64,000 bases of DNA from Azolla caroliniana (Eukaryota > Plantae > Polypodiophyta): the NCBI GenBank assembly GCA_043228905.1, contig JBHGNT010000002.1, forward strand, positions 13,144,001 through 13,208,000, in the 5' to 3' direction. The notes under the pieces were generated by a model. It was not told the origin of the DNA. It searched no databases and worked only from the letters and a program-made list of their open reading frames with translations. The translations under genes and the position numbers were made by a program. Below are positions 19,433 through 63,574 of the stretch, one piece after another. How positions within the stretch are numbered: the stretch's first letter is position 1; each line of letters begins with the position of its first letter.

Positions 19433-19474
<42 letters not shown>

Positions 19475-21518: not shown

Positions 21519-22199
21519 ACCGGGTGTGCCAAAATATTGTGTTGTCTCTGTCGACTGACACAATGATTTGAACATCTTACTTCCTAAGTTGTTCTGTCAT
21601 GAAGATTGTGGTTGGATATATGGTGTTTGTCGACACTAATTACTTACTCAGATCTTGATGTAAACAATGGTTACTCAGAACTGAATTACTTTGATTAGAG
21701 CATAAGTTCTTGGTCGACTGTTAGTTATAAATATAATTTGTGTAATAGAGAAACATATCAGAACATCTGACACAGTAATTAGGTAGAGAAAAGGAATCAG
21801 AATAGTCGACATAGTAAATACTCTAACTAGCGAAATTATAATTAATAAACCCCAAATCGACTGATATTGATACAATGCTCTCGGTCCCTTTTTATAGACG
21901 ACCTGAGAGACTCTTACAAGATAGTACACTTGCTTATTCAACAAGAACCTATAGTTATACTAATTTTTCTATTTCCTAAATTACTCTATTTTTCCTACTT
22001 GGCAAAATACACTACCGACTCTGTCTTTTCACACTTGTCTGAGTCCCCTTCTCGACCTCTACACTTCGGGTAGCCGATCGGCTAACATCGGACGATCCAA
22101 AATTAGAACCGGATGAGCCGACCGATATTTGGGGTCCATCCGACCAGATAGGTGGGTCGGATTGGGCTACAACGAAGCACCCAGTCTCAGCTTCTATCA
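21519..22199 (-). mobile_element. Remnant 5' LTR plus tRNA-Arg PBS of a Tat-like gypsy element
   Basis: TGTGTTGTCTCTG terminus shared with 11570; minus-strand TGGCACACCCGGT at 21519-21531. Right boundary uncertain. Confidence 0.55.
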
Positions 22200-38560: not shown

Positions 38561-39095
38561 ATAAACACGTTCGTGTTCACAAGTGGAAGGATAAGGAATA
38601 TTCTGTTTGATTTTGGGGCTTTTTTTGCCATTTCACAAAACACCTTGATAATGTCACATTTCTCAAAAACTTGAAATTTTCACAATTTGGTAAAATTGAA
38701 AAATGCCAAAAATTGGTCAAATACGAAAAGTAACTTGTGACCACTAATAAGTTTTTAGATCTTAAAGATTTCAGAAGCAAAAAATTCAAAACAATCAACT
38801 TTTTTATATCATTCGATAAAATGTTATCATTGCACAAAAAATACATTCAGTTATTTGCATCACTATGATCACTCCTTTCATGAGAATCACTACTATAGCT
38901 AATATACGATTGTGACTCTTCCGACTCATTTTCAAATGTACCAATCAAATCATTGTATTCACCAAATGGTGTCTCCAAATTGTGGTACTAAATCTTGTTC
39001 GCCTTCAATCTGAGACATCTTCTAGACTTGGTAATATCTCTTTTATTATATCTATCATTGTCTTCCTTAAACGTCCAAATTTTGTCAATGTAAAC

Positions 39096-39551
39096 TGTTA
39101 CCCATTCCTTTGGGTGAACACCTTCGATAGATCTGCGACTATCGGTCTTCAAGGGCGTGGTACATGAAGGCTCGTATAGAGGCGTCGAGAGAGATACAGG
39201 GTTCAGAGAGAAAACACTAGCGAGGTTTTGATAGACGTGGCGGCGTGAAACTCATAGGTATAGATTGAAACACAGAATCATGCAACCAAAATAGGCACAA
39301 ATAAGATGTATTACTATGGCCGAAAGGATTACAGAACACGGCCTATGGCCGGTGACCTTACAAGTTTATCTAATTCGAATGACTAAGCTAGTGCTTCCGC
39401 CTATAATTTTTCTTCTCTCTCTTTTCTGAGGTATTGTTCCTCGTTTAAATAACTTTTCCCCTTACACACAGCCGAGCCCTTGGTGGCCCGTGATACTCGG
39501 ACTCGCCGTCTGCTAATTTCCTAATTTTACATTTCTATCCTCTGCACAACA
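39096..39551 (-). repeat. Putative 3' LTR (TGTTG...TAACA on minus)
   Basis: Shares AACACCTTCGAT, the TATA-region CCTCGTTT.A.A.CTT and a terminal hairpin with the LTR at 11570-12090, in the same orientation. Partner LTR not in the window. Confidence 0.65.
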
Positions 39552-40067
39552 CCTGGCACGCCCGTGGGACAGGACCTTGTCCGTCGGACCCACGACCTTC
39601 AAAATACTAACAATATTACAAAAATTGCCTTTTAGGCGTGATCCTCGTTTCATTCCTCCTTTAAGATGTCGAGGATGCTTTCGGGGTCCGGGGTGGCAGC
39701 AGGGTGGTCTGGTTGGACTGTTGGTGCGGGGGGTTGAGTTTGGTCCGGGGGTGGCCGATTCTTCTGGTGGGGGTGTGGGTTCGTGGGCGTTGGCCTCTCC
39801 TTCGACAGGCTCTGGTACCGTGTGGACGTCCATGGGATGTCTGTTGGCCGGGGCAAGTTCCTCCTGTGCCGTGTCCGTGATCTCCTCGCTGGGAGGTTCT
39901 TATTTCTGCTCTATGGCCGTTGGAGGGCTGGTGGGGATGGCAGCGAGTCGTTCTCGTTCGAAGGCTTCTGCTTCCAGGCGAAACAACATATGACCGTCAT
40001 TGAAGTCCTCCATTATTTGCTCGATTGCCGCGGTGTGAGATTTTGCCAAGGACTGGTAATCCTCGGT

Positions 40068-41039
40068 TCAATCTGCACGCAGATTTTGAATGCTGGCTTC
40101 GTCCATTTTGTAGAAGTCGCGGCCCTTCTTCCGTCGGTTCTCGACGTCGGCGCGTAAAATATGCAATTCGGCAGCTTGGGCTGCCCATTCGTCTCCTGCG
40201 CGACTTAATGTTTCCTCGACCTTTTTGGTAAGGTGATGGCGCTGTTTCTCGAGCAGTATGCGGATGCGTGTCTCATCCATGCCGGGCTGTGCTCGGATGG
40301 CTGCTAATTCCTGTTTTAAGCCGTCGATCTCGGCCTGAAGCTTCTGTGTCTTTAGCTCATAGATGGTCTGACTGTTCTTTGCATCCGCGGTTACGAGCTG
40401 GAGAGCCTGCTTGTAACGCTTCGTGAGTTCTTCGGTGGCCTGCTCCCGTTCTTTCTGACACGTGGCCCAAATTTGTTCCCGTTCGACGATTCTCTCTTCT
40501 TGTAGGGCGAAGTAGGAATCCGATAAGGCGTCTTTTTGCTTCGAAAGTAGCTTGCACTTGATGAAAAACTCGTCAGCCATCTCTTTAAGGGTCGTCCGCT
40601 GACTCTGCAGCTCGGCATTCTCCGCGTTCATCCTCTCCTCCTGTTCGCGATTTCTTTCCTCCTGCCGCTGGTTCCAATCGTGTGCATTGTCGAGCGCGGC
40701 CTGTAAGTCTAGAACCTCCGTCTCTTTCTTCACCATTGTGGCTGCGTATTCCTCCAACTTGCTTTTGAGTTCGGCTTCCTTGGCCGCGGCTTGCGCTTGT
40801 ACCCGGCCCAATGCTTCGTGTTGCTCGTGTATCCTTTGGTTGGCCTGGGCTCTTATCTCGGCCATATGCTTGGAAGCTTCTTCTTTTAGGCGAGCCATCG
40901 CCTCTTGATGTCGTTGCTCGTGTCTCTCGGTTCGCCGTTGTTCTTCTTTAAGCTCCACACGGTAATCCTGGAGCGGGGGTTCTGTCTGGGTTGCCACCTC
41001 CTTGGTTGGTGCGGTTAGTTTGGGTTGCTCCACGGCCAT
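40068..41039 (-). CDS. Extra (3') ORF of the Tat-like element, long coiled coil; continues from 62381-63563
   Basis: E/K/Q/A-rich heptads; joins ORF 62359-62862 in frame once the chromovirus and one TSD copy are removed. Confidence 0.7.
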   Translation of the reverse strand: MAVEQPKLTAPTKEVATQTEPPLQDYRVELKEEQRRTERHEQRHQEAMARLKEEASKHMAEIRAQANQRIHEQHEALGRVQAQAAAKEAELKSKLEEYAATMVKKETEVLDLQAALDNAHDWNQRQEERNREQEERMNAENAELQSQRTTLKEMADEFFIKCKLLSKQKDALSDSYFALQEERIVEREQIWATCQKEREQATEELTKRYKQALQLVTADAKNSQTIYELKTQKLQAEIDGLKQELAAIRAQPGMDETRIRILLEKQRHHLTKKVEETLSRAGDEWAAQAAELHILRADVENRRKKGRDFYKMDEASIQNLRAD

Positions 41040-41490
41040 TATTAGAGATTAGGTACTAAAGTAAGCATAAAATAAGGACATATCAATGATAGATCTAGAA
41101 AGAATAGAGAGAAAAGAGAGAAAGAAGGGTGCCGATCCACCCGACCACCCCCGAGCGAAGGGATCGAGACGGACTCGAGCCTCGATCGGCGTCCCATACC
41201 ACCGCCTTGGCGTCGAGTCATACCTGGACGATAGCGCGCTTGCTACAAGAGTCGTTCCACTCACGGACAGAGTCTCGACGTAGTCAATGCATGATGAAAT
41301 GAGGGTAGCTAGGCCTCTTATTTATAGTAATTCTCAAGGCCCCCAGCCATGTTCACACTTGGCCTCATGGGTTGTCTCAATCCCGAGGATTAAAAGTAAT
41401 CCTCCCCTTCTTTAGACTCTTTGTTTAACGCTCACACTTATCCACGTGTATAAAATACTACGACAATTCTCACCACGGGATATTATATGG

Positions 41491-44400
41491 TCATGCCCGT
41501 AACATACTCCCCCTCTTTAAAACATTGCACTCTTGCAATGGAAAGTTAGGGAAGTTAGTTGTTAGAGTCGTTTCGCGTTCCCATGTGGCATCTTTGATTG
41601 ATTTATCCATCCATTTTATTTTAAATTCTCGGATTTCCTTAGCACGTAATTTTTTTGTTTTAACATCGAGAATTCTTTCTGGTACATGTGGTTTAGAAGA
41701 TAAATCTTCAGAAGTAACCAGAGTTTCAGTTGTAACTGTATTGTCGCCAGAACCTAGAAGTTCTTTTAGACGACTTACATGAAAGACTGGATGGATTCCA
41801 ACACCATCGGGAAGAGCGAGACGATAGGCTGATGATCCAATGCGTTTGAGGACTGTAAAAGGTCCACAAAACCGTGGGGCTAACTTAGCGCACTTACCCG
41901 TAGACAATGTCTTAGAATTGTGAGGTACACGTAAAAATACCTTCTGTCCAGGGCTGAATACACGAGGTTGCCTGTGATGATCGGCATAAAAACGCGCTCT
42001 ATCTTGAGCTGTTTTTATATTATCCCGTGCAATATGCAACATATCTTGCATATCCCGAAGAAAGTTTTGCGTACTTCGCAACTCATCATGATGTATATTA
42101 AGATCAATCGGGGCTCGTGGCTGAAATCCATACATCAACATAAAAGGACTATATCCCGTCGACGTATGCTTGGAGCTGTTATAAGCAAACTCCAAAATTG
42201 GGAGGTAACGTTCCCATTTTGTTGGTTTTGCACCAACGTATGCTCGAAGCATGTCCTCAATAATTTGATTTACTCGTTCTGTCTGTCCATCGGATTGAGG
42301 ATGATCCGTGGAGCTCATGCTCAACGTAGTTTCTAACTTCTTAAAGACTTGCGTCCAGAAGTCACTAGTAAACTTCGGATCTCGGTCACTCACGATATCC
42401 ATCGGTAACCCGTAAAAACGAAATAACTCATCAACGAATTGGTAAGCCAATTCAGGAGCTGTTACCGTGGTTTTAGTAGCAATAAATCTGGCCATTTTAG
42501 TTAGTCTGTCAACCACAACCCATATGGCATCATGACCTTTTTGGGTGCGAGGAAGGCTAACAATAAAATCCATGGATATACTTTCCCACTTATTATTGGG
42601 AATGTCCAAGGGATGTAAAAGTCCTGCGGCTTTAAGTCGCTCGGCTTTGTTAACCTGACATTGGTGACATTTAGTCACATAGCTATGTATGTCAGGACGC
42701 ATCTTAGGCCAATAAAATTGAGTGGAGATGAGAACGAGTGTACGATGTATTCCAGGGTGCCCTACTGAGGGTGCATCATGGCATTCAAAAAGAATTCTCT
42801 TTTTGACCTCAGGTAAATCTGGAACACAAACCTTCCCATTACGGTAGAGCAGACCGTTAGCAATGTGGAAGTATTCCTTCGAGGGTGTGGTGGTGTCTGT
42901 TCCAGACTCGACTCTTGCCCAGTATTTTGCAAAATAATTGTCATCAGGATACTTTCCTCGAAGGTGATCATAAAGATCTGATGTTATTTCAGTGAAGCTA
43001 AGCATGTTAACTTCACGGATGCGACTTAGTGCATCAGCGACAGTATTCATGGAACCTTTACGATATCGTATGGAAAAATCAAAGTCCTGGATGAGATCAG
43101 CCCATCGTGCCTTACGACCTTTCAGGTCTTGTTGGTCACAAAAATATTTCAAGGACTCGTGGTCCGTAGTTACCACAAAGCGATTTCCATAAAGATAATG
43201 GCGCCATGTTTTGAGCGCATGTATAACCGCAAATAATTCCTTTTCTTGAACGGTATACCGACATTGAGCAGAATCAAGTTTCTTACTCTCGAATGCTATT
43301 GGTTTACCATCTTGATACAAGACAACACCTATAGCATAATCGCTTGCGTCGGTTTCAACCTCAAAAGGTTTTGAAGGATCGGGTAAAAGAAGTGAAAGAG
43401 CCTTGCATACCAAGTCCTTGAGTTCCTTAAAGGCGAGGTCTAGTGTAGCATTCCACACAATAGGTTTTGTAGACTTACGCGTTTGACCTTTTAGAAGATC
43501 AGTAAACGGCGTCGTCAATTGTGAGTAATTACGAAGAGATTTTCGCAAAAATCCGACAAAACCAAGGAATGATCGAACTTCTCGAATATTCCGAAGAGTG
43601 GGCCAAAGCTTGATTTTCTCGATGCGAGAAGGATCAATTTCAACTCCTCGTTCGGTTATGAGATGTCCAAGATAAGTAATTGATTTCTTGAAGAACTCAC
43701 ATTTTGAGATCTTCGCGTAAAATTGTTTGTCACGCAATATTTGTAAAACAAAGCGGACATGTCTAGCATGTTCTTGTAATGTACGGCTATAAACTAAAAT
43801 ATCATCTAAGAAGATAACGACAAATTTTCCAAGTTGTTCTCGGAAAATGTCATTCATTTCTTGTTGAAATGTAGCCGGAGCATTGGTCAAACCAAAAGGC
43901 ATAACCAAAAACTCATAATGGCCGTAGCGCGTACGAAATGCTGTTTTAGGAACATCGTCCTCACTTATTCGTATTTGATGGTAGCCAGTACGGAGATCAA
44001 GTTTCGTAAAATACCGAGCTCCCTGGAGACGGTCAATTAGATCGTCAGCCCGGGGCAATGGGTACGAATTCTTGATCGTCACTTTATTCAAGCGTCGGTA
44101 ATTAATACACATACGCCATGTGCCCTCTTTCTTTTTAACCAAGAGAACTGGTGCACCCCATGGAGATTTACTATAACGTATATAACCCATTCGTAAATAG
44201 TCCTTAAGTTGCTTAGCTACCTCATCCTCTTCAGATCGACTTAGGCGATACGGAGGTATACTAATGGGTGCAATGCCAGGTACAATATCTATACGATGGT
44301 CTATATTACGTTTAGGAGGTAAACCATCGGGTAGTTCACTCGGAAAAACATCACGAAAATCGTTTACGATTTCATCAAGTTGTTTTTGTTCAAAAGATGT

Positions 44401-44888
44401 TAATTGACCCGAGACATTATCGATATTGTAAACGTGAATGTCCGGATCAAGTACACAATAAAATAACGTAGAACAAGACAACTCGGATATTGATGGACAC
44501 GAGGAAACAATCGAGAGGGATTGTTTTGTTACACATTGAATAAAATGCGTACAATCGTTGAGTACAAAAGAAATGGAATGGCGAACCCAATCAATAAATA
44601 AAGAAGAGCTTTTATTATAAAACCAAGGATAACCCAGTATTACATCGGTGGTACTAAGATTCATTACATGGAAGTCTACTTCCACTATATAGGTATCAAT
44701 AGAAATTCCTAAAGAATGAATCGCCCCGTTGATGTGTTGTACTCTTCCATCAGCCAAGTGCACCGTGTAGGTGTGATCACTTACGGTGGGTTGGATTCCC
44801 CATATCTGTACCAAACGATCATTCACAAAATTGTGTGAGCTTCCCGAATCAAATAAAAATTGTACAGGAGATCCATTGATATACCCGT
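41491..44888 (-). CDS. Chromovirus pol (PR, RT, RNase H, INT, chromodomain), separated from gag by an insertion
   Basis: [43 protein letters not shown]...IKW...ATWE. The first ~35 aa of the track ORF derive from the inserted LTR. Confidence 0.93.
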
Positions 44889-44990
44889 TGTCGTAGTGTA
44901 TTTCGTACACTACGTGAAAAAGTAAAAATAATATAACCGATTTAATTACATATAAATAAATAAAATAATATATCAAGATATTTATCACGT

Positions 44991-45060
44991 GCATAGGGCA
45001 GGATTTGAACCCTATACCTCCACGTAGCCAAACCTCAACTTTACCATTATGCTACCTTAT
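44991..45060 (-). ncRNA. tRNA-like Pol III module (A box + B box) inside the LTR; copy at about 47358-47427
   Basis: Minus strand TAGCATAATGG ... about 32 nt ... GGTTCAAATCC, followed by a T-rich tract. Confidence 0.55.
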
Positions 45061-45640
45061 CTTTAGTGTTCTATAAATAGATTTAATAACTATAAGTGCT
45101 TTATTTGCGCCTACCTTTATTAAAAGGTAAATCATGTATTTTTAGAGTGCGTGAATATTTTATAGAAAAACGCAAGCGACTAAAAAGTGACTCATGCACA
45201 TCTAGCGTGCATGAGCACTATATTTAGCAAATAAAAGCAAGGATTAGAAAAGCATCACATGCACATTTAGTGTGCATGAACATATTAGAAAAAAAGCATG
45301 TAGCTATGCTTAGTCTCTCCCATCACTACATAAGGATGGGGAGCACAATGTAATAGGTGTGTGAAAAATATTTGGGAAATTGGATATATTTCCTAAAACA
45401 CCAATTAACAAACTATACTCGTGGGATTCACGAGATTTCTATATCTTTCTCTATCAATCTAAATACATATTCTTACATAAATATTAATCAATAAAATACA
45501 TTATACTTGTGGGATTCACAAGTTTCTAATAATCTACTCATAATTATAATAGTCTCAAATTCTTCCTCCTCCTAGTCCAAAACCCCGGTGGTTCCCACCC
45601 GACTCACGCAACGATCCGGAGCCGAAAGGCACGACACAGT

Positions 45641-45658
45641 TGGTGAACCCGACGTGAA
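45641..45658 (+). promoter_or_regulatory. PBS complementary to the tRNA-Trp 3' end
   Basis: TGGTGAACCCGACGTGAA, 4 nt after LTR-A; matches the recalled plant tRNA-Trp(CCA) 3' end ...TTCACGTCGGGTTCACCA. Confidence 0.8.
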
Positions 45659-45673
45659 GGCGGGTGGCAAGGA

Positions 45674-46040
45674 GATGGAGAATCAACAAGAGGCGATGAA
45701 CATGATGATGATGATGTTCGAGAGAATGCTACAAGAACAACGCGAGATGTCGGAGATCACGACAGTAGTACAACGGCTCGTGCAACAGAACGGGCAATTC
45801 GATGGAAAGGACGTGTCACGCTATCTACGTGACTACAAAATGGAGATGTTGCGATATGGTATCTCAGAAAGATTGCAAGTGTTATCTTTCAACCGGGTGG
45901 CTACGGATGAGCTTCAAGAGAGAATCCACGAGATACGACAACAAAGCCCGATGTGGGAGTCCTTTGAAGAAGCTATACGAGACACATATGACTATCTAAG
46001 ACCGAAGCGGACGAGGACATGGTCCACGAACGGCGGTTAA
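45674..46040 (+). CDS. Truncated gag-like ORF of the Trp-primed element
   Basis: Starts just after the PBS; FDGKDVSRYLRDY...W.SFEEA resembles a gypsy gag N-terminus. Confidence 0.6.
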
Positions 46041-46046
46041 CAGTGG

Positions 46047-47303
46047 GTGAAAAGCGGCCACCGACTACCACCGAAGGAGAGCTTGATGCGGAAGGGTTCG
46101 GAGATGCATGAAAAGTCGCAAGTCGACATTGAAGGGGAGCTTAAAACCGAACCAAAGTCGAGGCCAACAAAGGACGAGGAGGAGGAAGATCGAGGACGAA
46201 AGGGTATCCCCACACCGGTTCCAGAGACTTCGGCGGCTGTGCCCGTGCACCAACGTGAGACTGGAGAGACGGAATGTGTCGGTGGAAAAGTGGAGGACCG
46301 GAAGGGCAACGAGGAAGACAAAGTAAATGAGCACGAACGAAGGGATTCCTTCACCATTGTTTCGGAGACTTCGGTACTGGAGCCCGGGTGTCGACATAAC
46401 ACCGAAGATAAGGAAAGTGGCGGCAACGAAACGAAGGTCGAAGCCGATGCATACGAAGGAGAGATAGCCAAGGAGAACATGGCTATGGGTGAAACAACAG
46501 AAGATGATAATACCGAGGATTCCTACCCACTAATTCTAGAGACTTCGGCGGTTGTGTCCGAGAACCAACGTGAGACCGGAGAGACGGGAGGTGGCAACAA
46601 GGAAGGTAAAGTCGGAAGCCGGTTCGGATGGAAGATGATCCGTCTGAAATTCCGATGTAAACAAAAGCATGACAACGCGAAGGTCGGGTCTACGATGGGA
46701 GAAGCATGTAATACGGAGCACGCACTACGGCACCAAAAGAAGCACGTGCTACGGCGTAAAGAGAAGCACACGCTACGGCGCAAAAAGAAGCACACGCTAC
46801 GGTGCAAAAATAAGCATGCACTACGGGGTAATACGGCGCATGCACTACGATGGAATACGAAGCATGCGCTACGGCCTAATACGACGCATGCGCAACATCG
46901 AGAAATAAAGCATGCATTAAAGCCGCACAAGGACCTAACAGCGAGCGCGTATTCGGAGGTCGACATCGACGCGTGGGTAGAACCTACGGAAGACAAGCGC
47001 GGAGTGGAGAGAGACAACACACCGAGATGCTCAAGAGTACCACAAGGGACCATGACAACCACTCATGGCAATGCAAAGAATGAACAAAGAATATGGTGGA
47101 TCGGATGGCGACAATGGTTCGGGTGGAAAGAATGGGTCTACTCAAAATGGAGAGACAAAGTTGACATAGCGGGACAAATTGAGGATGAAGGGGAGACAAC
47201 GAGCATCGGCAACTTCGGCACATACCGGAGGATGTGCGGGTTCGGAGGGGGCGAGTGTCGTAGTGTATTTCGTACACTACGTGAAAAAGTAAAAATAATA
47301 TAA
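46047..47303 (+). CDS. Unknown repetitive protein, in frame with gag after a single TAA
   Basis: 418 open codons; acidic ETSA..RETGET repeats, about 8 basic 8-aa repeats (KHTLRRKK), Trp-rich tail. Confidence 0.45.
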   Translation: MKSGHRLPPKESLMRKGSEMHEKSQVDIEGELKTEPKSRPTKDEEEEDRGRKGIPTPVPETSAAVPVHQRETGETECVGGKVEDRKGNEEDKVNEHERRDSFTIVSETSVLEPGCRHNTEDKESGGNETKVEADAYEGEIAKENMAMGETTEDDNTEDSYPLILETSAVVSENQRETGETGGGNKEGKVGSRFGWKMIRLKFRCKQKHDNAKVGSTMGEACNTEHALRHQKKHVLRRKEKHTLRRKKKHTLRCKNKHALRGNTAHALRWNTKHALRPNTTHAQHREIKHALKPHKDLTASAYSEVDIDAWVEPTEDKRGVERDNTPRCSRVPQGTMTTTHGNAKNEQRIWWIGWRQWFGWKEWVYSKWRDKVDIAGQIEDEGETTSIGNFGTYRRMCGFGGGECRSVFRTLREKVKII

Positions 47304-48731
47304 CCGATTTAATTACATATAAATAAATAAAATAATATATCAAGATATTTATCACGTGCATAGGGCAGGATTTGAACCCTATACCTCCACATAGCCAAAC
47401 CTCAACTTTACCATTATGCTACCTTATCTTTAATGTTTTATAAATAGATTTAATAACTATAAGTGCTTTATTTGCGCCTACCTTTATTAAAAGGTAAATC
47501 ATGTATTTTTAGAGTGCGTGAATATTTTATAGAAAAACGCAAGCGACTAAAAAGTGACTCATGCACATCTAGCGTGCATGAGCACTATATTTAGCAAATA
47601 AAAGCAAGGATTAGAAAAGCATCACATGCACATTTAGTGTGCATGAACATATTAGAAAAAAAGCATGTAGCTATGCTTAGTCTCTCCCATCACTACATAA
47701 GGATGGGGAGCACAATGTAATAGGTGTGTGAAAAATATTTGGGAAATTGGATATATTTCCTAAAACACCAATTAACAAACTATACTCGTGGGATTCACGA
47801 GATTTCTATATCTTTCTCTATCAATCTAAATACATATTCTTACATAAATATTAATCAATAAAATACATTATACTTGTGGGATTCACAAGTTTCTAATAAT
47901 CTACTCATAATTATAATAGTCTCAAATTCTTCCTCCTCCTAGTCCAAAACCCCGGTGGTTCCCACCCGACTCACGCAACGATCCGGAGCCGAAAGGCACG
48001 ACACAGTTGGTCCTCAACTTTACCATTATGCTACCTTATCTTTAGTGTTCTATAAATAGATTTAATAACTATAAGTGCTTTATTTGCGCCTACCTTTATT
48101 AAAAGGTAAATCATGTATTTTTAGAGTGCGTGAATATTTTATAGAAAAACGCAAGCGACTAAAAAGTGACTCATGCACATCTAGCGTGCATGAGCACTAT
48201 ATTTAGCAAATAAAAGCAAGGATTAGAAAAGCATCACATGCACATTTAGTGTGCATGAACATATTAGAAAAAAAGCATGTAGCTATGCTTAGTCTCTCCC
48301 ATCACTACATAAGGATGGGGAGCACAATGTAATAGTGTGAAAAATATTTGGGAAATTGGATATATTTCCTAAAACACCAACAATCAATAAAATATACTCG
48401 TGGGATTCACGAAGTTTAAGATAATCTATCTCTTTCAATCTAAATTCATATTCTTACATAAATATTGATTAATGTAATACTTGTGGGATTCACAAGGTTT
48501 GATCTCTTTTCTCAATCTACTCTAATCTATTCTAAATTATTTCAATTTATTACTACGATTTAGATAAACTAAAACAATTATACTTGTGGGATTCACAAGT
48601 TTCTATATCTCTTTCTTATAATCTATTCATATTCATAACTAGATTAGCCTCAAATTCTTCCTTCTCCTAGTCCAAAACCCCAGTGGTTCCCACCCGACTC
48701 ACGCAACGATCCGGAGCCGAAAGGCACGACA

Positions 48732-49861
48732 CCGTTTGCACGTAGTAAATCATTGGGACCCAATACATAATGAGGGAAAGAACATTGACAATTACTCAAA
48801 TGATGTGTATAGACCTGAAGGACATTAGGAATCTGACCTTTATGGTCTGTAGCTTTAGGTTTGGCGTCGTGCTCTTTTCGTTGGAGCTTACGACATTGCT
48901 CTTTTGTATGACCCTTCTTTTTGCAGAATACGCAAAAAGGATGTTGTCGCTTATAATCGCGATCCATGAATTCGTTGGGTGTCTTGCGTTTCCCAACGAA
49001 TTGCGACTGCTTAGTCCCGGGCGCTTCGTTGGGTTTGTTATGGTCCTTCTTCGAAGTGCGTTGATAGCGAAGAACTATCTCAACGGCCTCTTCGAAGGAT
49101 TTTGGATCCTTATCGTGCACTATCCAGTGATAGTCCGAATTGGGGATGCCATTGACAAAACAAGCTATTAACCAATTGTCCCCTTCTAGACCCGATTTTT
49201 GGATTTGGGTTCTAGCATGGTGGACATAATCTTCTAGCGAGGAAAACTTCCTGCTAGAGAGGTTCATTAAAGCTTGTGCTGCCTCGGTTCGAGAGGGAGG
49301 TTGTAGAAATTGACCCTTGAAAACTGTGACAAAGTCTGTCCAGGTCTCGGGCAATCTCCCCAAAGTTCGGAGCCCACGCCACCAAGCGGCGGCCTTACCC
49401 CCTAGTTCTCGGCCGACATATGCAATCTTCGTACTATCTGGCATGGGATAGAGCTCAAAATGAGACTCCCATCGGCCCAGCCACGTGCAGATTGCTTCTT
49501 CGGTTCTTTCCTTTTTATCTCCCGTAAATGGCTTTACGACAAATGATGGTTCACCCTGACGCTCATCAGGTCTATTAATCTCATTTTGGAGACTAATGAC
49601 TCGTGCCTCGAGAGCACTTTGAGATTGCCGAAATTCGGTCAACTGCTGCGCGGTTGAACTAAGGAAATGTTGTACTTGTAAAATATACGCCTCAATGGAC
49701 ATTGTCCCAGGAGGATTTCCTTGAGGTCTTTCCGCTTGAGCGGAGGGCATTGGGTCGTTATTCTGAGCCATTGAATGATTATTTCTGGCAAAGAAATAAG
49801 ATAAGGTCAGACAAATAGTCATAACATCTTGTCGTGGTGTAAACATATCATGGGCAAACAT
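48732..49861 (-). CDS. Chromovirus gag (retrotransposon gag domain + CCHC)
   Basis: LGGKAAAWW...TWTDFVTVFKGQF, CVFCKKKGHTKEQC; joins pol in frame when the insertion is removed. Confidence 0.88.
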
Positions 49862-49988
49862 TAATCGATATCATGATCTCACGTCAATACCCCTCTAGAC
49901 GTATGAGATGAGGTTCAAGATCAGGTTACTATGGTAACACAGAGGTGTTTTAAAAACCATGGGGGTGACAAATGAATGCCTTTCCCTG

Positions 49989-52900
49989 TAAAGGTAAAGA
50001 GGGATGTTTGACGGATCAGCTATTGAGAGATGACGTTCAGCAAACAGGACTGTAGTAGAGATAAGAGTAGAGACACACAGATCTTTGGTGTACCCAACCG
50101 CCTTGATTGGTACACAAGAAAAAAGAAGGTTATTATATTAGTTAACCTTACATAGAAAGTGGTGTGTTCACATTATAAAAGGAGGTGTCCTGTCCAAGTG
50201 AACAATGTGTTCACATATACGAATAATTACCTAATTTGTGAACTACGGGCCTTTACACCTAACAACCTCCCACTTAAAGGTCCGATGTGAACATTCAAGT
50301 AACTCCCACTAACTGTATGCAATGTTCATGTTGAGCTTTGCCAAGACTTTTAGTGAGAATATCTGCAGGATTATCCTGTGTTTTGATCTTGGTCAATGTG
50401 ACTAGACCATCCTCCAAAACTTGTCTGATAAAGTGATGTCGCACATCAATGTGTTTGGTGCGCGAATGAAACATGGCATTCTTAGCCAGATACACAGCAC
50501 TCTGGCTATCACATCCTAACACAGGAGTACTAACAGACATGCCAAGATCTTCACCAAGTCTGCTGAGCCATATAGCTTCCTTTGAAGCTTCTGAAGCTGA
50601 AATATATTCAGCTTCAGTAGTACTCAGTGCTACAATCTTTTGCAATTTGGAGCACCAAGACACTGCTCCACCAGCAACTGTAAATATATACCCGCTAGTA
50701 GACTTACGTGTATCCAAGTCACCTGCCATGTCTGCATCACAATATCCCTGCAAATTTAATGCACCCTTCCCATAGCATAAACATTTTCTTTGTGTACCTT
50801 TAAGATACCTGAAAACACACTTGACAGCCTCCCAATGTGCTTTCCCGGGATTAGACATATAGCGACTAAGAACTCCCACTGCATAAGCAATATCTGGACG
50901 AGTAGCTACCATAGCATACATTAGAGAACCACATGCTGATGCATAAGGAATTCCCTTCATAGCATTGATTTCCATCTCATCCTTTGGACAATCAGCCTTG
51001 CTGAGTTTAAGATATGACGGCAAAGGAACTCCAAGAGACTTTGCTTCTGCCATATTAAATCTGTTAAGCACTTTTTCAATGTACTTTTCTTGTGACAAAA
51101 ACAACAATTTGTTTTTTCTGTTTCTATTGATTCTCATGCCCAAAATATGCTCTGCATTTCCCAAATCTTTCATAGAGAAGACCAATTTCAGTTGATCTTT
51201 TAGAGCATCAAGACTAGTCTTTCTTTTCCCAGCTAGCAACATATCATCCACATATAGAACAAGTATGATAGGACTGTCATCGATATCCTTTTTCGTGTAT
51301 AAACAATGATCTGCATAGCTACGATCAAAGCCTTGAGAAAGCATAAAAGTATCAAACTTCTTATACCACTGTCGTGGTGCTTGTTTTAGGCCATACAAGC
51401 TACGTTTTAGTTTGCATACCAAATGCTCCTTGTTAGAGACTACAAAACCCTCAGGTTGTTTCATGTAGATCTCTTCATCAATATCACCATGCAAAAAAGC
51501 GGTCTTTACATCCATTTGGTACAACTCCAAATTAAGCATTGCAGTGAGAGCAAATAGCACACGAAGTGTGGTCATCTTCACAACAGGAGAGAAGACCTCT
51601 TGGAAGTCAATACCTTCCTTCTGTGCATAACCCTTGGCAACTAATCTTGCCTTGTATTTTGGTTTCCCTTCAATTTCCTTTACCTTATAAACCCACTTAT
51701 TTGGAAGAGCTTTCCTTCCTTGAGGTAAGGACACAAGATCCCATGTATCATTTGCATATAAAGATTTTATTTCTTCTTGCATTGCAAGCTCCCACTTACT
51801 ACTAAGTTCACATGACATTGCCTCCTTATAAGTAAGAGGTTCACCCTCATCTGACAGCATGACATAATGCAAAGAGGGGTCATATCTATATACCTGCCTC
51901 CTTGAACGATTAGACCTACGTACCCAATGATCAGTATTTTCTGGGATTGGTTCTAAATCTGGAGGAAAATCATTTTCAGCACTTTCTGGCTGTTGCGAAC
52001 CATGTCCAACATGTTGTTCGACATCTATATTTTGTTCTTCAGTACCTTCATCTCGTTGACCAATATCTTCATGAGCATCTCTTTGCTGTCCAACTTCTTC
52101 TGGCTCAAAGATAACCGGTTGACCATCATATTCAACCTTTGGTATAGCATCATGAGGTTTATTTTCAGATTTTGTGGATGGCTGTAATTGCTGAAATGTA
52201 ACGCTCTTAGAGTTCCCAACAGAGGAACAAGCATTTTTCAGCAATTTTTCTTCATTAAAAACAACATCCCGGCTGCGTACAATTTTTCTGGACTGAGGTA
52301 ACCAAATCCTATAGCCCATTTCACCTTCATCACCATAGCCCATAAAAATGCCCATGGTGGACTTAGCATCGAGCTTATTTCTCAGCTCACTTCTAATGTG
52401 TACAAACGCATCACAACCGAAAATTCGTAAATGGTCATATGAAGCTGGTTTGCCAGACCAAACCTCCTCAGGGATTCCATTTTTTAAGGACTTGTTGGGA
52501 GAACGATTACATATATGAACCGCGGTTTTTAATGCTTCTCCCCAAAATTCATGAGGGAGATTAGCTGTGGACAGCATGCATCGTACTCGCTCACACAAGG
52601 TCCTATTATACCTTTCTGCCACCCCATTTGATGAAGGGTTATATGGAGCAGTAAGCTCTCTTTTAATACCATGTAAGTCACAATAAGACTTAAATTCTGC
52701 AGATGTAAACTCACCCCCATTATCTGTTCTGAGACATTTCAGTTTTGTCCCTTTTTGAGTAGTCACAAATGCATGAAAAGATTTAAATGCATCAAATGCA
52801 TCACCTTTTCTTTTCATCAAGTACACCCAAATCTTCCTAGAATAATCATCGATAAAGGAAATAAAATACGCAGCACCGCCCAAGGATTTTACAGGCATGC

Positions 52901-54540
52901 TACATACATCAGAATGCACCAAATCTAGCACATTTGGTTTACGAGAGATACCAGAATAATAAGAATTTCTCACTTGTTTGCGAAATAGACAATCATTACA
53001 AAAAACCAGCTTTGATCCTTTAACATCAAATCTTTTTAAAGCAGAAAGGACTTCAAGTCCTTTTTGGCTCATATGTCCTAATCTCTTATGCCAGAGCTCT
53101 AAACGAGAGTCGAATTCAGCAATAGCAAGAAACTTTTCAGGTAAAGCTTTGCATTGCAAACAGTACAGAGTGCCCTTTTTGCAACTTTTCACAATAACCA
53201 TAGATCCTTTCTTTAGTTTCCATAATCCACCACCGAATAATGTGGTGTAACCATGCAAATCCATTTGTCCTACAGATAGCAAACTTTTCTTTATGCCAGG
53301 TACATACCTAACATCTTTGAGCACAAGCTCTTGACCATTATTCAAAGACAAGTGTATGGTTCCAATACCATCAATATTGCAAGCACTATTGTTACCAAGA
53401 TAAACTTTTCCATAATTGCCTGCATCAAATGTGGTAAAGCACTCCAAACATGGAGTAACATGAAACGAAGCCCCAGAGTCTACTATCCATGTCTGTGTCA
53501 ATCCATCATCGATTGACAATAAAGCATCAATAACATCTGTTTTGGTGATTTGCATGTCTTGAACATGAGCTATAAAGGCATCACCTGTAATACAAAGTAC
53601 ATCACCATCTTCACCAGATAGCTCTTCAATGATAACATTTGAAGCCATATTAGCTTTCTCTGTTGTATTAAACTTATCCTCTTTGTTTTTCTTCTCTCCA
53701 ACATTCTTCTTCCTTTCTAGTTCCATCTTCCAATATCTACAATCAGGTTTCTTATGACCTTTACGGCCACAATGATAGCAAGTGATATCTTGTTGTTTTC
53801 CTTTCCCTCTACTCTTACTTCTATTTCTTTGTCCTACATTTGGGTTCCTCTTATCATATCTCCCCCTAATATTGTATGCTGAACCACTACCTTCTCTGCT
53901 AGATTGTCTTCTAATCTCTTCATTGAGAATAGAGCCCCGCACACCATCGAAGGTCAAGGTGGGGCTATTAGATAGTGAAACAACTAATGTTTCCCACGAA
54001 TCCGGTAAAGTCATAAGTAGGAAGATAGCTTTGAGCTTGTCATCAAAAGCTGGTAATCCTGAATCTTGTAGTTGGGAGAGAGTACCTGTGAATAAAGATA
54101 GATGCTCTGTTGCACCTTTCGACTCATCAAGCCTCATACTGACAAGTTTTCTCATCAAATGCACCTGATTCACAGGAGTAGTATTCTCGTAAGTTTTCTT
54201 AAGTTTCTCCCAAACTTGATGGGCAGTAGTCAAGCCCTTTACATCTACAAGAATTTCATCAGAAACAGCCATTTTAATATATGTAATGGCTTTCTTATTC
54301 AGAGTGTTCCAAGCATCATTTTCCATGCTCTCTGGTTTCTTTTCTACGAGAGCATCTTCACAATCTCTTAGAAAGAGGATGCCCAGCAGACGCTCTTTCC
54401 ACAATTCGAAACCTTTTCCATCAAATCTCTTGATTTCAAAGAGGTTTTTCACTTCAGCTGAAGTGGAGGCCATTGCTCCCACGATTTATGACAGATGCCT
54501 TCAGAAATTGAGCAGAATACCAATAGGAAAGGGTCTGACA

Positions 54541-54572
<32 letters not shown>

Positions 54573-54925
54573 AATCTGTGTTTTCTGCTGATTCTGAATC
54601 TAAAGAAAAACAGCAAAGTAGAGGAAAGAGATTTGGCTCTGATACCAGTTAAAGGTAAAGAGGGATGTTTGACGGATCAGCTATTGAGAGATGACGTTCA
54701 GCAAACAGGACTGTAGTAGAGATAAGAGTAGAGACACACAGATCTTTGGTGTACCCAACCACCTTGATTGGTACACAAGAAAAAAGAAGGTTATTATATT
54801 AGTTAACCTTACATAGAAAGTGGTGTGTTCACATTATAAAAGGAGGTGTCCTGTCCAAGTGAACAATGTGTTCACATATACGAATAATTACCTAATTTGT
54901 GAACTACGGGCCTTTACACCTAACA
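49989..54925 (-). mobile_element. Full-length Ty1/copia element (copia-D) in the chromovirus leader
   Basis: 276-bp LTRs at 49989-50264 and 54650-54925 (1 mismatch seen); TSD CCCTG at 49984-49988 and 54926-54930; iMet PBS 54635-54647; PPT AAGTGGGAGG. Confidence 0.96.
50295..54482 (-). CDS. copia-D Gag-Pol, intact, 1395 aa
   Basis: CYHCGRKGHKKPDC, WIVDSGAS, HSDVC / LRTDNGGEF, YVDD, YCDAD / EAEY / CDSQ all intact. Confidence 0.95.
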   Translation of the reverse strand: MGAMASTSAEVKNLFEIKRFDGKGFELWKERLLGILFLRDCEDALVEKKPESMENDAWNTLNKKAITYIKMAVSDEILVDVKGLTTAHQVWEKLKKTYENTTPVNQVHLMRKLVSMRLDESKGATEHLSLFTGTLSQLQDSGLPAFDDKLKAIFLLMTLPDSWETLVVSLSNSPTLTFDGVRGSILNEEIRRQSSREGSGSAYNIRGRYDKRNPNVGQRNRSKSRGKGKQQDITCYHCGRKGHKKPDCRYWKMELERKKNVGEKKNKEDKFNTTEKANMASNVIIEELSGEDGDVLCITGDAFIAHVQDMQITKTDVIDALLSIDDGLTQTWIVDSGASFHVTPCLECFTTFDAGNYGKVYLGNNSACNIDGIGTIHLSLNNGQELVLKDVRYVPGIKKSLLSVGQMDLHGYTTLFGGGLWKLKKGSMVIVKSCKKGTLYCLQCKALPEKFLAIAEFDSRLELWHKRLGHMSQKGLEVLSALKRFDVKGSKLVFCNDCLFRKQVRNSYYSGISRKPNVLDLVHSDVCSMPVKSLGGAAYFISFIDDYSRKIWVYLMKRKGDAFDAFKSFHAFVTTQKGTKLKCLRTDNGGEFTSAEFKSYCDLHGIKRELTAPYNPSSNGVAERYNRTLCERVRCMLSTANLPHEFWGEALKTAVHICNRSPNKSLKNGIPEEVWSGKPASYDHLRIFGCDAFVHIRSELRNKLDAKSTMGIFMGYGDEGEMGYRIWLPQSRKIVRSRDVVFNEEKLLKNACSSVGNSKSVTFQQLQPSTKSENKPHDAIPKVEYDGQPVIFEPEEVGQQRDAHEDIGQRDEGTEEQNIDVEQHVGHGSQQPESAENDFPPDLEPIPENTDHWVRRSNRSRRQVYRYDPSLHYVMLSDEGEPLTYKEAMSCELSSKWELAMQEEIKSLYANDTWDLVSLPQGRKALPNKWVYKVKEIEGKPKYKARLVAKGYAQKEGIDFQEVFSPVVKMTTLRVLFALTAMLNLELYQMDVKTAFLHGDIDEEIYMKQPEGFVVSNKEHLVCKLKRSLYGLKQAPRQWYKKFDTFMLSQGFDRSYADHCLYTKKDIDDSPIILVLYVDDMLLAGKRKTSLDALKDQLKLVFSMKDLGNAEHILGMRINRNRKNKLLFLSQEKYIEKVLNRFNMAEAKSLGVPLPSYLKLSKADCPKDEMEINAMKGIPYASACGSLMYAMVATRPDIAYAVGVLSRYMSNPGKAHWEAVKCVFRYLKGTQRKCLCYGKGALNLQGYCDADMAGDLDTRKSTSGYIFTVAGGAVSWCSKLQKIVALSTTEAEYISASEASKEAIWLSRLGEDLGMSVSTPVLGCDSQSAVYLAKNAMFHSRTKHIDVRHHFIRQVLEDGLVTLTKIKTQDNPADILTKSLGKAQHEHCIQLVGVT

Positions 54926-55126
54926 CCCTGATCTCTATATCGATTTTTTTCATGGCGGCTCCCCGAGGCTCAACCATGTATGTTCGCGTCATGAATAGTT
55001 TATACACGAAAAAAATGTTAACAATAACTATGTTTCTGTGCCCACATATGTGGTTTCGGCTCTTTAAGTCCTATTACGAGGACCCCGAAGTGCACTTAGA
55101 CCTAAAGTCTAAACATGTATTATAGT

Positions 55127-58100
55127 TGTTGCGAATCAACGCTTGGATTCACTTTCACCACTCGGCCACAACCGATTAATCGCGGATCAATGCAGCAGAA
55201 AATAGGAAACACAGAGAGAGACACGATAACACAGGGATTAACGTGGAAAACCCTAAACGGGAAAAACCACGGGAGTACAAGACTCCAAACCAACACTATA
55301 CAGAGAAGTATACAATGGCGAGCTGCAAGGCGACGACCTTGAGCTCGCTGTCCTCGCCACAGGCGGCGGTAATACACAGAGGCAACGACCTCCTCGTTTC
55401 TCTCACTCTCTCTCTCTCGGCTGCTCTCACTTCGCTCCCTCTAAGTGAAAAACAGAAAATGAGCAGCAACAGAATAAAACTGTTTGCCCTAAGTCATATT
55501 TATACACATATGACTTTCGGACTATTTACACATATAGCCTCAAGGGCTCTTGGCAAACATATTTATAAATATGTCCCCGCATCCGGATCTCTCTCCGGGT
55601 ACATTCATCATCCGGCTCCGTAGCCGGGTCTTCGTCATCCGGCTCCGTAGCCGGGGTCTTCATCATCCGGATCCGTATCCGGGTACTTCATCATCCGGAT
55701 CCGTATCCGGGTACTCTTCATCCGGCTTCATACCGGGTATTCTTCATCATCCGGAGAGTGCGCTCACCGGACCTGTATCTTCATCCGGTTCCGTAACCGT
55801 AACCGGGCTTGCCGTCATTCATCTCCGGACATCCCATCCGGAGGGACCGATATCCCAACAAACTCCCCCTTCACTTCGGCATGGGATGTCTTTCCAGTCC
55901 GACCCTCTTCCGGCACGCTTCCAGCTTGTCGGGTGTGAGCACTTTGGTCAGCATATCTGACCCGTTCTCGTCCGTGTGGATCTTCGTCAGTACGAACTCC
56001 TTGTCTTCTATCCTTTCCCGGATCCAGTGATATCTTCGCTGGATGTGCTTCGTCCGGGAGTGATAGGCCGCGTTCTTCGCAAGGTGGATGGCACTCTGAC
56101 TGTCGCAGTAGAGTCGATACTCCTCCTGCCGGATACCGAGCTCTCTAATGAAGTCCTTCATCCATATTATTTCCTTGCCGGCTTCAACAGCTGCCATGTA
56201 CTCCGCCTCCGTGGTTGACAACGCAACCGTCTTCTGCAGCCTCGACTGCCACGAAACGGCTCCCCCTGCATACGTCATCACATACCCTGATGTGGACCGG
56301 CTGGTATCTGCATCAGCCGACATATCCGAATCGGTGAAGCCGTCGAGTTCGGGCTTACCGGAGCCGAATCGGAGGCACACGTTTGCCGTGCCTTTCAGGT
56401 ATCGGAGTATCCACTTGGCCGCGTTCCAATGCTCTTTGCCGGGATTGCTCATGTACCGGCTCACCACTCCGACTGCATATCCTATGTCCGGTCTCGTACA
56501 CACCATTGCGTACATCAAGCTCCCGACGGCAGAGGCATATGGTACTTTCATCATGTCCTCCTTCTCAGCCTTTGTCTTGGGGCTTTGCTTGCTGGACAGC
56601 TTGCAGTTTGCCGGGAGGGTCGATCCGACCGGTCTTGCTTCCGACATGTTGAACCGGTGAAGCACCTTCGTTACGTACTTCTCCTGTGACAGCCACAACT
56701 GCTTCTTGTTCCGGTCCCGGATGATATGCATCCCCAGTATTTGCCTCGCCGGACCCAGGTCCTTCATTGAGAAGGTTCGGTGAAGAGCCTTCTTCAGCAT
56801 CCGTATCTTGACCTGGTCCCGTCCGACGATCAACATGTCGTCCACGTATAGGAGGAGTATTAGAGAGTCTCCTCCGTCGAACTTCTTCACAAACACGCAG
56901 TGATCGGACTGCGTCTTGTGGTACCCTTCGTCGGTCATGAAGGAGTCGAACTTCCGGTACCACTGCCGGGGAGCCTGCTTCAGTCCGTAAAGGCTCTTCT
57001 TCAACCGGCATACCAGGTGCTCCTTCCCTTTCTTCTCGAATCCTTCCGGTTGCTGCATGTAGATCTCTTCTTCGAGGTCACCGTGAAGGAATGCCGTCTT
57101 CACGTCCATCTGTTCTACCTCGAGGTCCATTCTTGCCGCTATGCTCAGCACCGTCCGGATGGAGGTCATCTTCACTACCGGGGCAAATATCTCGTCGAAG
57201 TCGACGCCCTTCTTCTGCTGAAACCCCTTCACCACGATCCTGGCTTTGTATCTCGGGGGGTTTTCGGCATCTCCCGGTTTCAGCTTGAACACCCACTTGT
57301 TACGGAGTGCCCGTTTTCCTTTCGGCAACTCCACAAGTTCATATGTGTGGTTCTCATGCAGGGAATCCATCTCCTCCTGCATGGCACTTAACCACCTGCG
57401 GCTATGGGTGTCATGCTTCGCTTCTTCAAAGCTCTCCGGCTCCCCCTCGTCGGTTAGCAGCACGTGCTCTGGTTCCGGAAATCTCCGGGGGGCCCTTCTC
57501 TCTCTTAGAGGATATCTCCATTCCGGAGCTTCGGTAACCGGCTCCTCCGTTTCCTCTTCATCCGAATCCATTTCGGGATCGGGGCCGGTTCCGGTATCAA
57601 TTTCATCTTCCTCGGCCGGTTCTGTTTCTTCACTGTCTTCGGCCGGATCCTCGAGTGCTAACCGGTCCCTTGCCGGTCGGGACTGCTCCTCGTAGAGTTG
57701 ATCCTCACCGGTCGACTTGGAGCTCTTCATCTTCTTCTCCGACTCCCAGTCGGCGAGTGTCTTGTCCTCCATGAAGATGATATCTCTACTCCTGAATATC
57801 TTCTTGTCGACCGGGTCCCATACTCGGTAGCCGAACTCGTCGTCGCCGTAATCGAGGAATATGCATGGCCGGGTCTTTGGATCTAGCTTTCCTCTCCGGT
57901 CCTTTGCCACATGCACGTATGCGAGACACCCGAACACCTTCAGATGCCGGTAGGACACTTCCTTACCGGTCCACACTCTCTGCGGCGTGTCTCCGTCCAA
58001 AGGTACTGAGGGTGATCTGTTTATCACATATGTCGCCGTCGACATTGCCTCAGCCCAAAACCCCTTGGGTAATTTTGCATGCGCCAGCATACTCCGGACC

Positions 58101-60625: not shown

Positions 60626-61409
60626 ATAGTCATATGTATCAACGATGTTGTATGGTGTTGGTCATATTTGAACTCGAGACCTCGAGGACAAATACATCAA
60701 ACACTTGAGCCAACCAAGTAGATTGCGCGTCTTGAATGTTTAATGTTTGAGGCGTATTCGAGATATGCGAGGCATTTGCCCCTATATGTTTTTTTTAAAA
60801 GAAACATATAGGTCAAGTGGCCTTATTTCTCCCTCATTTATTACCCACTATGGTTGTACGCTACCTACCCTCAAGCCTCGTAAGTACAATGGCATATGCC
60901 AAAGTGTAACCTAATGGTCAAGCCGAATGAGCCCTTGTGTCTTCATAGGCTCATGTGGCCCATCACATGGTCACGTCATTACGAATGGCGCTCGTAAGAA
61001 CGAGCTCATGGTGGCATCGTATCCATGTAACGAGGGGAGATGTTGGATATGTGTGTCATTAGAGCGACCCTACTTGATGTGGATCAAGCCCGACGTATTC
61101 AACATCATTTTAGCTATACGAGGTTCGTTACGTAACGAAAGATCAAAGTGACCAACGGGAATTTCAACAATAAAAATTGTTGATAAAAGGGATGGTGACA
61201 ACGCCATTCTCACAAAAATGTGAGGACGGCCACCAAAATCCTCTCCCCAATTAGGAAAACATTTGATATGAATCACGTAATCTAAAATATACACATATGT
61301 CAATATATCACATATATACGATCAGAGACGTATATAAGTGACCACATATGCGTATACTAAAGGAATCGTTTTTTTTATATAGCCAACAATGATGTATTCG
61401 GGATACGTA

Positions 61410-61662
61410 ATCGAGGCATATACCTCTACGCACACGAAACATCCGAAAATAAGGTTAAGTGTAATTCGCAATTGAGGTATTGACCTCTTACGCATAGTAA
61501 ATCCAACGCATATCATTTCGAACGAAGCGAGGTATTGACCTCGTACGCGAACGTAACATATGTTCGTGAACGTAATACGCAATTGAGGTAATAACCTCGT
61601 ACGCATACGACACTCATCACATATGATTTATATGTCAAACGAGGTATTGACCTCATGGACAT
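61410..61662. repeat. Five ~55-60-bp-period repeats with a GAGGT-N4-ACCTC hairpin core in the chromovirus leader
   Basis: Cores at about 61413, 61475, 61529, 61585 and 61641. Confidence 0.7.
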
Positions 61663-62380
61663 ATGTAAACGTTTAAGATAACCAATTAAATACCACGTCA
61701 ACATCATTGAATATATGAAAAAAAAACTACATATTAAGTATACACATGTATAGAAGGGAGAAGAAAAATTAGATAAAAAATTAAGGAAAATTTACCGAAG
61801 TTCTTTCGCTAATCCTTGTCTGCATGAAGGCGACCGCACAACGATCAATCGCCATCCCACGCGAAGACAAAAAGAAAACCAAAAGAAACGTTAGTACATA
61901 GGCTCCGATACCAAATATTAGAGATTAGGTACTAAAGTAAGCATAAAATAAGGATATATCAATGATAGATCTAGAAAGAATAGAGAGAAAAGAGAGAAAG
62001 AAGGGTGCCGATCCACCCGACCACCCCCGAGCGAAGGGATCGAGACGGACTCGAGCCTCGATCGGCGTCCCATACCACCGCCTTGGCGTCGAGTCGTACC
62101 TGGACGATAGCGCGCTTGCTACAAGAGTCGTTCCACTCACGGACAGAGTCTCGACGTAGTCAATGCATGATGAAATGAGGGTAGCTAGGCCTCTTATTTA
62201 TAGTAATTCTCAAGGCCCCCAGCCATGTTCACACTTGGCCTCATGGGTTGTCTCAATCCCGAGGATTAAAAGTAATCCTCCCCTTCTTTAGACTCTTTGT
62301 TTAACCCTCACACTTATCCACGTGTATAAAATACTACGACAATTCTCACCACGGGATATTATATGGTCATGCCCGTAACA

Positions 62381-63563: not shown

Positions 63564-63574
63564 AAAATGGGGCC

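Follow-up and report, generated by a model that had tools for sequence, protein, structure and literature searches.

A 64,000-nucleotide (nt) stretch of the Azolla caroliniana genome (NCBI GenBank assembly GCA_043228905.1, contig JBHGNT010000002.1, positions 13,144,001 to 13,208,000; hereafter the window) holds, on its minus strand, part of a Ty3/gypsy long terminal repeat (LTR) retrotransposon in which the 3' half of tRNA-Arg(TCT), copied in two parts, stands where the polypurine tract (PPT) belongs. To our knowledge, nearly all LTR retrotransposons and retroviruses are regarded as starting their second strand from a PPT. Judged from sequence, the replacement of the PPT by this tRNA-derived cassette is real, conserved and clade-wide, and dual tRNA priming, in which tRNAs would start both DNA strands, is the best-supported mechanism for it.

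A split tRNA copy in place of the polypurine tract

On the element (minus) strand the site reads GTCCCACGGGCGTGCCA, then GG, then TGTTG, the start of the LTR. The initial annotation had described a tRNA 3'-end copy at 39552-39570. The copy itself stands, whereas its first two nt are a spacer (CC on the plus strand, between the tRNA-like 17-mer and the LTR end at 39551), which places the 17-mer at 39554-39570. The acceptor end recognised in that annotation is likewise part of a longer match, in which a T-arm block and a hairpin had been missed and which reaches 39593. When window positions 39554-39593 were aligned with nt 49-76 of the tRNA-Arg(TCT) in locus L003, 26 of 27 aligned bases were the same. 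Base 66 is absent, T55 is changed to C, and 13 nt are inserted between nt 58 and 59. L003 holds a complete, real tRNA-Arg(TCT) with CCA (ARAGORN; Rfam RF00005, 71 bits), confirming the identity first proposed for the site, including its being one base short. The 10-mer of the site is by itself not above chance, with three matches in the window and 1.94 expected. ARAGORN detected no tRNA in the window, and Rfam gave no match on 39450-39700, as expected for a split half-tRNA.

The absence of a PPT noted at first inspection was also borne out, as the longest purine run beside the window 3' LTR is 5 nt. The corresponding runs at control 3' LTRs elsewhere in the window measure 6-12 nt (n = 4; a fifth, with a misplaced LTR edge, was left out). 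A role of the site as an RNA polymerase III B-box was considered and rejected, given that T55 is changed and C61 is displaced by the insert.

Conservation of the site across related loci

A motif pattern scan of metagenome contigs returned at least 122 loci, at least 113 of them retroelement-like. Nine loci (L006, L014, L025, L045, L050, L051, L075, L103, L107) came from other sources and showed neither a T-arm nor an LTR context; they were removed, as were three matches with less than 40 nt upstream, and 113 matches plus the window were used in counts. Pattern matches in viral contigs (1 and 13 in two scans) were kept out of all counts; these contigs contained no relative of the family's pol or of the extra open reading frame (ORF) that follows it. 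Among the matches listed, the LTRs fall into 53 clusters at 80% identity and about 30 at 70%.

The T-arm block (nt 49-58) lies outside the query, and with one row per cluster it matched the tRNA at a mean of 7.9 of 10 positions in 52 clusters, versus 4.5 in 156 control scans. Of 114 rows, 82 have an insert of 13 nt and 27 one of 14 nt. All four pairs of the insert's hairpin change on both sides, and across a 9-pair structure 22 double-changed cells were counted in 32 distinct rows with 13-nt inserts, a value reached in 0 of 500 shuffles that leave relatedness in. The spacer before the LTR is 2 nt in 114 of 116 family matches, where the pattern permitted 1-3 nt and about five rows are also readable as 4 nt. 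No purine run longer than 9 nt was present within 60 nt of the LTR in any of the 52 clusters, and no tRNA-sense copy retaining base 66 directly before the LTR was found in the motif-selected loci.

Several loci have peculiarities of their own. L003:1190-1265 is a whole mature tRNA-Arg(TCT) copy with CCA, antisense within a family member's extra ORF and 460 nt before the 3' site; it looks like read-through of the primer tRNA followed by a template jump, on a contig that stops before the LTR. L023 and L035 consist of tandem units of about 2.2-2.3 kb without protein matches, with an LTR of about 340 bp, a 10-nt primer-binding site (PBS) and the same 3' site; they are either non-autonomous members or collapsed assemblies. 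In L010, L012, L016 and window 11572-12090 the LTR begins with 15-20 nt of partial complementarity to the tRNA-like 17-mer, a stretch that could fold back onto it. In L078:991-1585 and L009, the 3' ends of two different elements lie near each other on opposite strands, an arrangement that can mimic an LTR with the site at both edges.

A full-length relative found without the motif

One locus, L137, was found in a genome-contig scan by pol similarity alone. It is a full-length element with two direct TG...CA LTRs that are 93.4% alike, flanked by CAATA and ATATA, a possible, imperfect target-site duplication (TSD). It is sister to the family in the reverse transcriptase-RNase H (RT-RH) tree and has 67% identity to the family polyprotein P0036; its pol and extra ORF form one 2444-codon frame. 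Two nt before its 3' LTR stands an 18-nt end, CCA and base 66 included, that equals the L003 tRNA at 14 of 18 positions and is the single best match among about 44,000 locus positions. An 8-bp hairpin comes before this end, and no PPT lies beside the 3' LTR. The L137 contig (G001:C10), filed in a bacterial bin, carries plant-type retrotransposons first and bacterial genes from 26 kb on, and is likely a chimeric assembly.

Orientation and coding content of the window element

Within the window, the orientation of the LTR is weakly minus (global z 4.7 for minus versus 2.9 for plus; local z 2.6 versus -0.2). Past the 39096 edge, a single public contig of run X4 goes on with the sequence complementary to CA-CAATT-TGGCACGCCCGG, which is a normal PBS; loose contig ends pooled at this edge agree (16 contigs in X2, five in X4). 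Divergent contigs connect the site both to the extra ORF and to the LTR. The same order is found on one strand in L016 (integrase, extra ORF, site, LTR, PBS), L069 (extra ORF, site, LTR, PBS, gag, protease) and L048 (site, LTR, PBS, gag), on contigs that are short and perhaps collapsed or tandem repeats and that still show both LTR edges. Among the matches listed, extra-ORF matches lie upstream of the site on the same strand in 34 of 122 loci (any protein match in 42), and gag lies behind the site on the opposite strand in 0 of 122. L021 is collinear with the window over extra ORF, site and LTR.

The edge contigs with their PBS, together with the gene order of L016, L048 and L069, settle the orientation, in agreement with the initial annotation that 39096-39551 is a minus-strand 3' LTR. 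That annotation had named two findings that would speak against it. A plus-strand 5' LTR joined by inversion does not fit the far LTR edge, where a normal PBS and then gag were found; no normal PPT was present by the 3' LTRs of relatives, L137 included. Opposite-facing tRNA-related sites at both internal termini, which it had anticipated, were seen at the LTR edges of relatives.

In the window copy the extra ORF follows the RT fragment with nothing between them. Set against L021, L016 and intact polyproteins, this junction indicates an internal deletion that took RNase H, integrase and the beginning of the extra ORF. Because RNase H and integrase are deleted, the window copy is, by its predicted coding content, a non-autonomous deletion derivative. 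The extra ORF is about 1060-1170 codons long in L021 and L016; it matched no Pfam family, and its Atlas matches were only coiled-coil look-alikes, all under 0.9.

The 5' primer-binding sites

The PBS of the family matches the L003 tRNA over 10-14 nt. A split build of core, hairpin and CGAAC is present at the 5' PBS of L016, L029, L032, L034, L036, L048, L062, L069, L077 and window 11566, where CGAAC is the complement of the T-loop; in coding families this build lies on the RNA. Position 67 of the 3' site covaries with the PBS, being A/T in L029, L034, L036 and L077 and G/C in L016, L023, L047, L048, L069 and L073. Three loci keep the 3' site with a PBS that fits another putative tRNA: L032 and L062, two assemblies of one family, in which the PBS starts TGGCGACCAC, and L137, in which it starts TGGCGACTCC. 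The complementarity between PBS and 3' site in these three is just 4 bases. The idea that the PBS is corrected from the tRNA in every cycle was dropped, since this is not so for Ty1/Ty3 (PMC5371799, PMC7472051; these and later citations refer to the portions of each source available to us).

Predicted priming mechanism and alternative explanations

These data allow us to propose how such elements would start their second strand. At the site, a host tRNA probably anneals to the minus-strand cDNA and starts plus-strand synthesis 2 nt short of the LTR. A tRNA at the 5' PBS would prime the minus strand as usual, after which RNase H would clear the element RNA. tRNA-Arg(TCT) could then pair with the exposed cDNA through nt 76-67, nt 65-59 (66 bulged) and nt 58-49, with the hairpin looped out by position 58. 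RT would extend the tRNA through the 2-nt spacer into the LTR, RNase H would remove the tRNA, and integrase would trim the two extra bases.

Predicted tRNA pairing with the minus-strand site beats pairing of the site with the element's own PBS in 7 of 7 loci (net -24 to -38 versus -4 to -17 kcal/mol), using RNA parameters as a proxy for RNA:DNA and unmodified bases. The least conserved base within nt 51-58 is position 58 (61 of 95 rows), which in the tRNA we take to bear a methyl group that blocks pairing. Low conservation at 58 fits a methylated, non-pairing tRNA base. Most changes that cluster members have in common are G-to-A or T-to-C, substitutions that a duplex of tRNA and minus-strand DNA would tolerate as wobble pairs (18 versus 4 in fine clusters, 11 versus 1 in coarse clusters).

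Several points weigh against tRNA priming of the plus strand or limit its reach. The weak point of the model is that RNase H also acts on a tRNA paired with DNA. The 113 loci were selected by motif from one assembly series, perhaps one host, and give no rate of PPT-bearing relatives; the unselected sample is 1 of 1 (L137), whose tRNA-like end differs from the L003 tRNA at 4 of 18 positions and whose T-arm block matches weakly (judged by eye, about 6 of 10). At the 5' end, CGAAC is missing from L023, L035 and L073, the non-coding families with a short PBS. The wobble asymmetry is soft, as the clusters are kin and the LTR background itself has a 1.3-fold G-to-A excess (0.29 versus 0.22 per site); a CpG comparison loses significance when position 67 is left out (5 versus 2, p 0.45). 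The non-standard pairs of the hairpin (G-T 15, A-C 9) do not reveal the folding strand, and the search pattern fixed nt 59-64, hiding any compensatory T-stem changes. On the RNase H problem, Ty3 RT has two active sites about 13 bp apart (PMC5371799). By analogy, and as speculation, the bulge 11 nt from the primer end, near that spacing, might shield the tRNA.

In the main rival among the other explanations weighed, the element's own RNA at the site would survive RNase H and act as a non-purine plus-strand primer, the tRNA likeness being mimicry read by RT. This keeps the canonical logic of an RNA remnant cut next to U3, the unique 3' region of the LTR (PMC5371799), and exposes no tRNA to RNase H; a fold of the sense RNA is predicted (43 nt, -9 to -20 kcal/mol), with the T-stem paired in 82.5% of cells and a covarying hairpin. 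We nevertheless consider it unlikely. A remnant is always complementary to its own cDNA, so tRNA identity that extends to the T-loop calls for a further assumption. Nor is a T-loop fold maintained, as whole clusters have lost the G53-C61 closing pair (G53A in 3 of 14 multi-copy clusters) and A58 varies, and the tRNA-binding 5' PBS has the same split build on the tRNA-complementary strand. It is less probable still that the plus strand is primed elsewhere, from a cryptic or internal tract, while the site does another job such as holding the tRNA or guiding strand transfer. Ty3 plus-strand transfer is intricate and its PBS is not copied from the tRNA (PMC5371799, PMC7472051), which makes accessory tRNA-related sites plausible. 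Such a job would leave unexplained why the CCA end lies exactly where a primer end would set the LTR edge, at the same 2-nt distance in nearly all matches and in L137. The purine-poor 60 nt beside the LTRs of the 52 clusters also speak against this explanation, with no search for internal purine tracts made.

The initial annotation had offered as an alternative that the 3' region of the RNA could pair with the PBS of the same element, for circularisation or self-priming; once cut, the segment would self-prime the minus strand. In same-tRNA families 10-11 bp are possible, the PBS of some families is just these 10 nt, and position 67 covaries with it; this covariation is equally expected if both sites track one tRNA variant. 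The alternative is disfavoured, and we rate it very improbable, since the site is kept in L032, L062 and L137, where the PBS fits another tRNA and the pairing left is minimal (net -4.1 kcal/mol in L032). Long PBSs moreover include the complement of base 66, absent from the 3' copy, and the plus strand would have no primer. Least credible of all, and refuted by the findings given below, is that the site is the ordinary 5' PBS of a plus-strand element, joined to the minus-strand ORFs by inversion or misassembly. The plus strand does read LTR, CA, 2 nt, PBS; the orientation evidence inside the window is weak, and the window copy does hold a rearrangement, the deletion. The other LTR edge, however, has a different, normal PBS followed by gag, and the arrangement recurs in the 53 LTR clusters among the matches listed and in the two-LTR element L137. 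The collinearity of L021 across the whole segment points the same way.

Returning to tRNA priming of the plus strand, we lean towards a broader reading, that a whole clade of Ty3/gypsy elements from non-seed plants has dropped the PPT and starts both strands from host tRNAs through mirror-built split sites (tRNA end, hairpin, T-loop match), some families with a different tRNA for each strand. This would be a third replication mode beside PPT priming and Tf1-type self-priming. If true, the success of a high-copy clade without a PPT would show that in vivo a tRNA placed on a DNA template is usable by RT and RNase H. The sites would also provide short natural substrates for studying primer escape from RNase H. 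Annotation tools that rely on PBS and PPT to orient or validate elements would likely give such families in fern genomes the wrong orientation or discard them.

Classification and comparison with known systems

The polyproteins P0034, P0036 and P0088 have the order gag, protease, RT, RNase H, integrase (Pfam), and relatives retain intact motifs for RT, RNase H and integrase. No additional RNase H was found in these three, in which the canonical RNase H motifs are intact. By its predicted domains the family is a non-chromovirus Ty3/gypsy lineage without additional RNase H, and because that domain is absent it is not Tat. In quick IQ-TREE and FastTree RT-RH trees without labelled references, from which 24 of 55 proteins covering less than 70% of RT-RH were left out, the family groups with L137 and with environmental and Riccia sequences, apart from Asteraceae (Tagetes/Tanacetum) and pine rows and from the elements that bear an additional RNase H.

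Athila elements resemble the family in layout, having no additional RNase H and a sense extra ORF 3' of pol (as in L016 and L137). The Athila ORF-1 domain (pfam03078) gave no match in the window, P0001, P0004, L016, L032 or P0088; it occurs in 16% of Athila elements and is hence a weak marker (PMC6317226). Tat/Ogre/Retand elements have the additional RNase H that the family lacks, and Phygy/Selgy elements are short, with a polyprotein that fills the internal region and no counterpart of the long extra ORF. Like plant non-chromovirus Ty3/gypsy elements generally, the family has no chromodomain and a tRNA-type PBS, Arg being among the PBS tRNA types given for non-chromoviruses; it differs in having no PPT (PMC6317226).

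With canonically primed Ty3 the family shares LTRs, a 5' tRNA PBS, RNase H motifs, integrase and a predicted plus-strand start at the U3 edge, whereas the RNase H-resistant PPT of Ty3 is replaced by a tRNA-sense copy with CCA (PMC5371799). In the bipartite PBS of Ty1/Ty3, tRNA pairing likewise involves two separate regions, the acceptor end and the T-arm; in Ty1 a loop lies between them, and in Ty3 a tRNA-related site lies near the 3' end (PMC5371799). Those sites are complementary to the tRNA, lie on the RNA and serve the minus strand, while the family site is tRNA-sense, lies upstream of U3 and would bind as minus-strand DNA. Self-priming in Tf1/Tcn1/TAR (PMC6317226; 10.1101/2022.12.06.519325) resembles the present case as non-canonical priming read from terminal sequences. 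There the PBS is not complementary to a tRNA, the 5' end of the transcript primes the minus strand and the PPT is kept, whereas the family has a tRNA PBS and a changed plus-strand signal. Helenus (TRIMp3) and Cassandra, terminal-repeat retrotransposons in miniature (PMC10886601) also carry tRNA-derived sequence within an LTR element; it lies inside the LTR as an RNA polymerase III promoter, with PBS and PPT kept, in contrast to the 3' half with CCA that lies outside the LTR and replaces the PPT here.

In the available portion of PMC6317226 three primer types are given, all for the minus strand. PMC5371799, PMC7472051, PMC10886601, PMC12786077, PMC7207207 and 10.1101/2022.12.06.519325, as far as their available text goes, describe PPT priming or unrelated matters, and the 'inverted PBS' in PMC7207207 refers to polymerase chain reaction primers. 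No description of a tRNA-primed plus strand was found in the literature searched, which leaves out most subscription journals.

Features of the window

The window is a stack of retrotransposons, and the features that bear on the tRNA-like site are collected in Table 1.

Table 1. Coordinates of the window element, its tRNA-like site and related primer-binding sites (window positions)
Feature	Position	Strand	Evidence or remark
5' PBS of related element: 5-nt spacer, 13-nt PBS with two changes, CGAAC, gag next	11531..11571	-	CGAAC matches T-loop
5' PBS of second related element, copia insertion directly after	21519..21531	-	Related element in window
Flanking TAAAC, predicted TSD; flank is another repeat	39091..39095	+	Partner end lies beyond window
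3' LTR, 456 bp, TG...CA	39096..39551	-	Contigs at LTR edge; collinear with L021, 79%
2-nt spacer GG, tRNA-like CCA end to LTR	39552..39553	-	2 nt in 114/116 family matches
tRNA-Arg(TCT) nt 59-76 copy with CCA, base 66 missing	39554..39570	-	Predicted primer-binding site on minus-strand cDNA (window + strand)
13-nt insert holding 4-bp hairpin, between tRNA positions 58 and 59	39571..39583	-	Covariation, all 4 pairs
tRNA nt 49-58 copy (T-stem 5' strand and T-loop), one change, T55 to C	39584..39593	-	tRNA alignment
Extra ORF, C-terminal part, coiled-coil-like, one internal stop	39650..41039	-	Final stop codon 56 nt before tRNA copy
Nested chromodomain-bearing gypsy element, LTRs 99.4% alike, TSD GCCAT, further insertions inside	41040..62380	-	Interrupts extra ORF, outside feature
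Extra ORF, middle part, frame breaks; N-terminal part deleted	62381..63570	-	Relatives compared
RT fragment, 74-77% identical to intact family polyproteins P0034/P0036	63571..64000	-	Bounded by internal deletion

The nested gypsy element at 41040-62380 is young, with LTRs that end TG...TA and a normal PPT; its PBS is presumably of the tRNA-Met type. Several nested copia elements are present, two of which (14265-19882 and 55161-60627) are 89% alike. At 12080-12110 a copia-type polypurine tract stands before the related 5' LTR, and the gypsy element seems to have inserted in the first bases of the copia 3' LTR. An open frame at window 2-877 resembles what we take to be a LINE (long interspersed nuclear element) endonuclease domain. 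A host gene with a glutaredoxin domain at 34199-35512 points to a fern host, as all five named relatives among its 18 matches are ferns.
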